In this document: in pieces, positions 52,394 to 52,795 of the stretch
Layout: each line of letters starts with the position of its first letter
Numbering within the stretch: the stretch's first letter is position 1
DNA from: Escherichia coli
Lineage (GTDB): Bacteria; Pseudomonadota; Gammaproteobacteria; Enterobacterales; Enterobacteriaceae
Direction: 5' to 3' (one strand)
NCBI RefSeq assembly: GCF_045037415.1
Contig: NZ_CP173438.1
Length of the DNA stretch: 64,000 nucleotides
Program-made: the position numbers and the translations under genes
Notes under the pieces: generated by a model
Databases searched by the model: none
Told to the model about the DNA's origin: nothing
The model's input: the letters and a program-made list of their open reading frames with translations, nothing else

Positions 52394-52795
52394 ATGCTTC
52401 AGAAGATTGGATACATGGAAGAAGATAATATTATAGAGAAAAAACCATGGCGTGGGATCCCACCTGAATACACGGATAGATGGAGGGAAATTTATAACAA
52501 CGCTGCTCCCGAAGAAGGGATGCATTTATCAGATGCTTGTCCAGTATGTGGTGATACGGAATTATATCGCTATTATTCTCTGTTAAAAACGCAACCACGC
52601 TTATTAGGAGGGATTATGTATAAAGGACCTGGAAGTTATTGGGAATGGTGTGGGTCTTGTCGTTCCTATGAACATATGTCAGGCTATGTACCAATATCGT
52701 GGGTTGTGGAGTTATCAGGAATAGATCATTCAAAATTAACGGCCATTCCAGATATGATTGATATTGCAAGACATAAAAATCATTACTTCTCTTAA
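52394..52795 (+). CDS. Hypothetical small protein with paired CxxC motifs
   Basis: 133-aa ORF in the AT-rich segment; CPVCGD and CGSCRS about 35 residues apart. Confidence 0.4.
   Translation: MLQKIGYMEEDNIIEKKPWRGIPPEYTDRWREIYNNAAPEEGMHLSDACPVCGDTELYRYYSLLKTQPRLLGGIMYKGPGSYWEWCGSCRSYEHMSGYVPISWVVELSGIDHSKLTAIPDMIDIARHKNHYFS

Follow-up and report, generated by a model that had tools for sequence, protein, structure and literature searches.

A Cys4 protein gene in the Flag-2 locus of Escherichia coli is probably an orphan immunity gene for a zincin-like toxin domain

What does a small gene for a protein with paired CxxC motifs do inside a cluster of flagellar genes? The gene lies in a 64,000-nucleotide stretch of Escherichia coli chromosome (the window, throughout) that carries the secondary (lateral) flagellar locus, Flag-2. 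On one side, it is flanked by flgN, a FliB_C-like gene, and a gene encoding an 812-aa GT2 glycosyltransferase; on the other side are a cytidylyltransferase gene and fliJ-fliI-fliH. This interval is variable region 1 (VR1) of Flag-2, a hotspot for horizontally acquired cargo genes, and VR1 of E. fergusonii contains vgrG, a gene for a 1556-aa Rhs protein and an Imm26 immunity gene (PMC6993521). A first-pass annotation of the window had described the setting of the gene as AT-rich; GC content is indeed 0.33-0.40 between 52 and 55 kb, as compared to ~0.53-0.62 in the flanks.

The gene and its Cys4 protein family

Translation of the window confirmed that the ORF proposed in the first-pass annotation, at positions 52394..52795 on the plus strand, encodes 133 aa. 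That length is the longest possible, however: the RefSeq version of the gene (WP_023142437.1, "hypothetical protein") starts at an ATG at 52415 and encodes 126 aa, and the start position of homologues aligns to 52433, which is ATG in E. albertii and ATA in E. coli. The coding region conserved across the family is 52433..52795 (+), as judged from the family HMM, alignments and dN/dS relative to E. albertii, with the HMM match itself covering 52436-52780 (E = 1e-40). Since the family ATG is ATA in E. coli, the E. coli ORF depends on the upstream ATGs at 52394 or 52415, which overlap the remnant of a preceding gene described below. The E. coli protein must therefore be initiated from an upstream ATG in a poor position or from a rare start codon. 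A promoter scan identified no more sites than in shuffled sequence, and Rfam and promoter/terminator scans of the cassette yielded nothing exceeding background.

The first-pass annotation had also pointed to two CxxC motifs about 35 residues apart. Both are present: CPVC (C49 and C52; residues 49-52) is encoded at 52538..52549 (+), and CGSC (C86 and C89; residues 86-89) is encoded at 52649..52660 (+) as part of a WEWCxxC...EH signature, with 37 residues from C49 to C86. The protein belongs to a sizeable family. A profile search of 1.84 billion cluster representatives returned 276 matches with E-values up to 1e-3, of which 126 had values up to 1e-10, and a word-indexed search returned 20 relatives, mostly of ~115-120 aa, from E. 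albertii, Superficieibacter and metagenomes. A genome scan that used a 22-sequence alignment as the query identified 12 loci. Genome matches came from Stenotrophomonas, Myxococcus, Corallococcus, Burkholderiales, cyanobacteria, Chloroflexi, Actinobacteria and Deinococcus. In an alignment of 59 sequences with a mean column identity of 34%, only the columns of the four cysteines, one leucine and one tryptophan are invariant, and a histidine five residues past the last cysteine is nearly invariant. C49, C52, C86 and C89 are invariant in all three family alignments, and of the full-length representatives among the 150 best profile matches, nearly all have both CxxC motifs. Judged from these alignments, conservation of the CxxC motifs is far beyond that expected by chance. 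One E. coli variant (P0003, 103 aa) has lost 30 internal residues, including the second CxxC knuckle, and is presumably inactive.

This family is not represented in current profile collections. Searches of Pfam and NCBIfam (E up to 1) and of PADLOC and PHROGs (E up to 0.1) returned no match to the protein; hence, it could be assigned neither to an Imm* or SUKH family nor to any other family with a curated profile HMM. A sequence search of the PDB with the protein yielded a single match with an E-value of 0.89, which is at chance level. The family alignments include no signal peptide or hydrophobic N-terminus, suggesting that the protein is cytoplasmic and that a toxin with which it is paired would act in the cytoplasm.

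With a 12-sequence alignment as input, AlphaFold gave a model with a mean pLDDT of 80, rising to 89-96 across residues 21-100. The model begins with an N-terminal helix and runs through a short strand, the CPVC loop and a second strand into a long hairpin, which turns at CGSC; it ends in a C-terminal helix. Each knuckle is modelled at the turn of a β-hairpin with pLDDT ~90, the first between strands 44-45 and 57-63, and the second between strands 74-86 and 91-100. Comparison of the model with solved structures using Foldseek yielded no significant match (best E 0.15); the leading weak matches are zinc-ribbon proteins, NrdR and RNA polymerase I A12.2. We consider a predicted Cys4 metal site to be well supported, since the two CxxC motifs are modelled in the arrangement of a zinc ribbon and the leading weak structure matches are zinc-ribbon proteins. 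As modelled, the domain as a whole is without a solved structural relative. Thus, the zinc-ribbon fold suggested in the first-pass annotation stands in part: the invariant cysteines and their modelled positions at hairpin turns agree with it, and the model has no significant match among solved folds. Structure prediction had been proposed there as a check, and the model does place both motifs in a zinc-ribbon arrangement.

Linkage to a zincin-like toxin domain

The genomic context of homologues points to a function. On metagenome contig L012, a protein of at least 804 aa with a C-terminal HExxH domain ends 2 nt ahead of the homologue; at locus L016, the same toxin domain is directly upstream; and on two more contigs, proteins of 713 and 639+ aa abut the homologue. 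Using only the last 192 residues of the L012 protein as a query, we identified 36 homologues of the toxin domain that share the invariant motif ANTIAHELSHAR and have a C-terminal end conserved as ...YGSGNALExWIxGxR*. Some of these proteins have RHS repeats and an RHS core, a PT-HINT domain, or the source name "RHS repeat-associated protein". In all three toxin contigs examined, the next gene is a member of the CxxC family (HMM E-values of 1e-42 for an Rhs fragment, 5e-44 for a JGI contig and 2.5e-17 for Deinococcus cellulosilyticus). When metagenomes were searched with a degenerate DNA pattern for NTIAHELSHAR, a motif of the toxin, 18 loci were retrieved, and all 18 have a family member immediately downstream on the same strand; because some of these loci are near-identical, they represent ~14 distinct sequences. 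The family gene is directly downstream in 21 of 21 loci sampled from the toxin side, with a distance from toxin stop to family start of -14 to +2 nt. The E. coli protein is 57% and 53% identical to the proteins encoded behind the toxin at two such loci, L012 and L043, respectively.

The proteins that carry the toxin domain are otherwise diverse. Among them are RHS_repeat+DUF6531 proteins of >2000 aa, a protein with an eCIS_core domain, another with PT-HINT, and a Gly/Ala-rich carrier that matches nothing in Pfam; carriers of the Rhs or eCIS type range from 1240 to 2429 aa. Hence, linkage tracks the toxin domain and not the delivery scaffold. The carrier at L012 (positions 2-2416) is not an Rhs protein; a transmembrane helix is followed by long Gly/Ala-rich repeats, and it has no Pfam match. 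The 1240-aa protein at L037 (1139-4858) combines eCIS_core, a weak PI3/PI4-kinase-like match and the HExxH toxin domain, which suggests that this toxin is delivered by an extracellular contractile injection system.

The toxin domain is C-terminal and ~125 residues long, with an invariant HExxH motif and a zincin fold whose nearest structural relatives are deuterolysin and SprT/Wss1-type peptidases. No toxin model in Pfam matched the domain at E up to 10. Its only Pfam matches are weak (SprT-like, E 0.11; Peptidase_M91, E 0.12) and far under the curated cut-offs, so that no Tox-MPTase2-5 or SprT-like profile matches the domain above threshold. Across 12 non-redundant pairs, sequence identities of toxins and of their downstream partners are correlated (Mantel r 0.66, p 0.008), a correlation that could stem from shared ancestry of linked genes and not from co-adaptation. 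The downstream proteins diverge faster than the toxins in these 12 pairs (mean identity of 38% versus 55%).

Relatives of the window gene have the habits of immunity genes: they are directly downstream of the toxin on the same strand irrespective of scaffold, they occur as orphans and in arrays, and one is fused to another immunity domain. The fused member, P0131, carries a SUKH-1 (SMI1/KNR4) domain, the archetypal immunity domain, and P0021 and P0024 are tandem duplicates. In Corallococcus interemptor, an orphan copy is fourth in a run of same-strand small ORFs that follow an RHS protein (1415 aa or more) whose C-terminus is different. In L009-L011, an orphan copy follows only the last 33 residues of the toxin, behind an unrelated pair of genes for a large and a small protein. 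In L009 (2-1757), the pair upstream of this stub-bearing orphan encodes proteins of 472+ aa and 111 aa whose genes overlap by a few nt, has no Pfam match, and is probably a different, undescribed toxin-immunity pair. Many other members, including those of Superficieibacter, Stenotrophomonas, Myxococcus and Aquihabitans, are found beside housekeeping genes with no toxin close by. The first homologue contexts that we compared (Superficieibacter and L004) share no neighbour gene, and tblastn of these neighbours against the window was negative.

The Flag-2 copy in Escherichia

The window retains a short remnant of a toxin gene in front of the CxxC gene. At 52393..52428 (+), in a frame differing from that of the 133-aa ORF, translation yields NASEDWIHGRR*, corresponding to the last 11 codons and the stop codon of the toxin and matching the C-terminal signature of the toxin family, GNALExWIxGxR*. 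A strict regular expression for this tail has one match in the six-frame translation of all 64 kb, at the stub. The stub's stop codon is 4 nt ahead of the homologues' start position, and the first 13 codons of the E. coli ORF overlap the stub in the other frame. At the same place in E. albertii, the corresponding sequence is NASDDWINGRD, which is in frame with the gene through a 1-nt indel, and the family ATG is kept. The toxin HMM had no match anywhere in the 64-kb window, and tblastn and HMM searches for the toxin body in the window and E. albertii detected only the short tail. Searches of E. coli genomes (blastn, word 11) and plasmids (tblastn) did not detect the cognate toxin either. The presence of the stub, together with the lack of a toxin in the window, indicates that the gene is an orphan immunity gene with a readable scar of the deleted toxin. 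In keeping with this, there is no full-length toxin upstream, the remnant is of the 3' end, and the gene is in a variable island of foreign composition. We also considered an 18-nt inverted repeat that brackets the gene (52423-52440 / 52787-52804), and attribute it to chance: it is not conserved in E. albertii (7 of 18 positions) and falls within the range for shuffled sequence. A 15-nt inverted repeat spans the whole cassette (52260-52274 / 54818-54832).

The CxxC gene is the constant element of a mosaic cassette. The cassettes of E. coli and E. albertii are homologous up to 52797, 2 nt past the stop codon of the gene, and again only from 54820, with the cytidylyltransferase gene. The 2-3.5 kb between the breakpoints (window, 52797 / 54820; L006, 8365 / 11930; L047, 6417 onward) contain unrelated sets of small genes on the same strand in E. 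coli and E. albertii, and TUM18780, which belongs to a lineage with a ~94% identical allele, has yet another downstream set. In the window, this variable AT-rich remainder of the cassette (52798..54819), for which E. albertii and the other E. coli lineage have unrelated small genes, includes ORFs of 182 aa (53820-54368) and 115 aa (54456-54803), both on the same strand as the gene and neither with a match in Pfam, NCBIfam, PADLOC or PHROGs. Relatives of the 182-aa protein are all close (88% identity or more), and the named ones are from E. coli. Among cassette neighbours in E. albertii and TUM18780, the only recognisable features are an LprI-domain protein and a weak match to DUF4259, both in E. 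albertii. It is conceivable that the whole cassette is an immunity array.

Several other features of the locus were observed. Between the CxxC gene and the 182-aa ORF, ~1 kb of 33% GC sequence (52798-53819) contains no ORF >89 aa, is not homologous to the E. albertii cassette, and may represent decayed genes. REP-type palindromic units (GCCGGATAAGGCGTTTACGCCGCATCCGGC-like) are found at 51929-52078, between the glycosyltransferase stop codon and the cassette, and are conserved in E. albertii with one 10-nt indel. The 812-aa protein (49474-51912) consists of a GT2 domain and a weak CDP-glycerol glycerophosphotransferase-like region; together with the cytidylyltransferase (54823-55251), it fits the teichoic-acid-like flagellin modification genes of Flag-2 VR1. 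The E. albertii counterpart of the ORF at 48456-49427 carries FliB_C (LafV-like methylase).

The gene is found at the same Flag-2 position in E. albertii, and E. marmotae also carries it. Between E. coli and E. albertii, dN/dS is 0.24 and dS is 0.32 for the gene, as compared to 0.17 and 0.34 for the adjacent glycosyltransferase gene. Because both values are close to those of the glycosyltransferase, we conclude that the gene was inherited with the locus and has been under purifying selection. Within E. coli, it is present in 421 of 5426 complete genomes (~8%), including O25b:H4-ST131 strains, and in 419 of the 421 carriers, the match spans 80% or more of the gene region. Of the E. coli copies, 405 are at least 99% identical and the remaining 16 represent the ~94% allele. 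Some strains have IS1 or IS2 in the cassette (E. coli records H1-H5), and truncated or internally deleted variants exist (P0003, P0006, P0010, P0016 and P0019). In E24/E25, a single-piece match was obtained only for query positions 178-421, so the gene region appears to be interrupted there.

Interpretation and relation to known systems

We propose, with a probability of roughly three in four, that the E. coli gene is an orphan immunity gene for a zincin-like polymorphic toxin domain, and that it has been kept as protection. The product would be a small cytoplasmic Cys4 (zinc-ribbon-like) protein of an unannotated immunity family, directed against the zincin-like HExxH domain, ~125 residues long, in which delivery proteins of the Rhs, PT-HINT and eCIS types end. 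Where the system is complete, the immunity gene is translationally coupled to the toxin gene, and its product would bind the toxin domain one-to-one, blocking it in the producer's cytoplasm; zinc, if bound, would probably serve as a structural scaffold. In Escherichia, the toxin gene would have been deleted to its 11-codon stub, leaving the orphan at the head of a mosaic AT-rich cassette in Flag-2 VR1. The orphan appears to have been held intact by purifying selection from before the split of E. coli and E. albertii, and protection against the toxin delivered by competitors is the likely reason for its retention. A bolder version, to which we give little credence, is that the Cys4 protein represents a structurally new immunity class that blocks the zincin through its conserved WEWCxxC...EH face, for example by inserting the near-invariant Glu-His pair into the catalytic zinc site, and that the Escherichia orphan has been a standing defence for millions of years against Rhs/eCIS attacks by gut bacteria. 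If so, the Flag-2 variable region would be a long-lived "immunity island" in lineages including ST131.

The orphan may instead belong to the immunity family and yet have become a functionless relic in Escherichia, carried along with Flag-2 and slowly decaying. The reduction of the toxin to 11 codons, the ATA at the usual start position, the IS1/IS2 insertions and the truncated or internally deleted variants in some genomes would all fit with decay, as would the failure to detect a cognate toxin in E. coli by DNA search, the lack of a promoter signal beyond background and the absence of the gene from ~92% of complete E. coli genomes. Nonetheless, a dN/dS of 0.24 over a dS of 0.32, near that of the functional glycosyltransferase neighbour, argues against a relic; moreover, all but two of the 421 carriers match at least 80% of the gene region, every family-invariant residue is kept, and the gene has been retained at the head of the cassette while everything downstream was swapped between lineages. 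We therefore consider loss of function to be unlikely, though a good deal more plausible than the functional alternatives that follow. One of these is that the protein is a toxin-specific helper, such as a chaperone, adaptor or activator for folding or loading of the toxin, and not an inhibitor. An obligate partner, too, could well be tightly coupled in translation to the toxin domain, and zinc-ribbon modules often mediate protein-protein contacts. However, known T6SS chaperones and adaptors follow the N-terminal delivery domain and are usually encoded upstream, whereas the partner here goes with the toxin domain, at the C-terminus, whether the carrier is of the Rhs, eCIS or PT-HINT type, and is always encoded downstream; toxin-less orphans, the SUKH fusion and tandem duplications are habits of immunity genes. 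A helper function is thus improbable.

Two further readings are more improbable still. The protein could serve as antitoxin in a conventional toxin-antitoxin module that acts inside the cell, or could be a zinc-ribbon protein that binds nucleic acid, consistent with its small size, its Cys4 motif, and weak Foldseek matches to nucleic-acid-associated zinc-ribbon proteins. Type II antitoxins have a small intracellular toxin as partner, are usually encoded upstream of it, and contain a DNA-binding domain. The CxxC family is not organised in this way: the partner toxin domain ends very large secreted proteins of the Rhs/eCIS type and not small intracellular toxins, the gene is downstream of the toxin, no DNA-binding family matches the protein, and the structure matches are not significant. 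Lastly, given its VR1 position between the glycosyltransferase and cytidylyltransferase genes, and that VR1 mostly contains flagellin modification genes (PMC6993521), the gene could encode a Flag-2 accessory protein, such as a flagellin glycosylation factor or a small zinc-finger regulator of lateral flagellar genes. Such a role is very hard to reconcile with the distribution of the family, since no homologue outside Escherichia is in a flagellar locus; homologues are behind toxins or at scattered sites. The GC content of the gene is foreign to the locus, and the toxin stub reveals its origin.

An orphan immunity gene would provide an inferred function for a "hypothetical protein" of ~8% of complete E. 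coli genomes, including O25b:H4-ST131, and would add an immunity family and a partner toxin domain that are both outside current profile libraries. It would also mean that some of the "cargo" of the Flag-2 variable region is left over from interbacterial warfare and does not belong to flagellar biology. A conserved orphan immunity gene in a species in which the toxin was not found points to recurrent attack by the specific toxin of other bacteria.

Orphan toxin-immunity modules are known from Rhs and CDI systems, where they lie behind rhs and cdi genes, and acquired clusters of orphan immunity genes are known from the "acquired interbacterial defence" of the Bacteroidales. Like these, the window copy has no full toxin and is preceded by a 3'-end fragment of one, and it heads a variable, foreign cassette of same-strand small genes. 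Unlike these, it is at a locus without rhs, vgrG or cdi, the cassette is inside a flagellar cluster, and searches with its neighbour genes returned no immunity family. In classical zinc ribbons (the TFIIS C-terminal domain, the NrdR N-terminal domain and A12.2/Rpb9), two CxxC knuckles ~35 residues apart are likewise positioned at hairpin turns. These proteins are among the leading structure matches of the model, none of them significant. The domain described here exceeds them in size, with a helix at each terminus and a longer sheet; it has no significant match in structure or sequence, and its setting would be toxin neutralisation, in contrast to the nucleic-acid transactions in which they function.

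The closest parallel is with the immunity proteins of polymorphic toxins (SUKH/SMI1-KNR4 and the Imm1-Imm74 families of Zhang et al. 2012, PMC3482391), which are also small, cytoplasmic and encoded directly 3' of the toxin domain. Independence of the delivery scaffold, orphans, arrays and occasional fusion (SUKH-1 in P0131) are further shared traits. The family differs from known Imm and SUKH families in having an invariant Cys4, zinc-ribbon-like core and no match to a Pfam Imm, SUKH or other profile, and we found no immunity family of the CxxC type in the main text of Zhang et al. 2012 (PMC3482391). The same text describes Tox-MPTase1-5 as small zincin metallopeptidase toxin domains, Wss1/SprT-like, on Rhs proteins, and gives no immunity protein for any Tox-MPTase family. 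The partner toxin resembles these in being a small HExxH zincin domain at an Rhs C-terminus, near deuterolysin and SprT/Wss1-type peptidases, and differs in having no match to a Pfam toxin model. Since neither partner matches a curated profile and the system is otherwise like any polymorphic toxin-immunity pair, the CxxC family is most likely a new immunity family of a known kind, with the copy in the window as an orphan.
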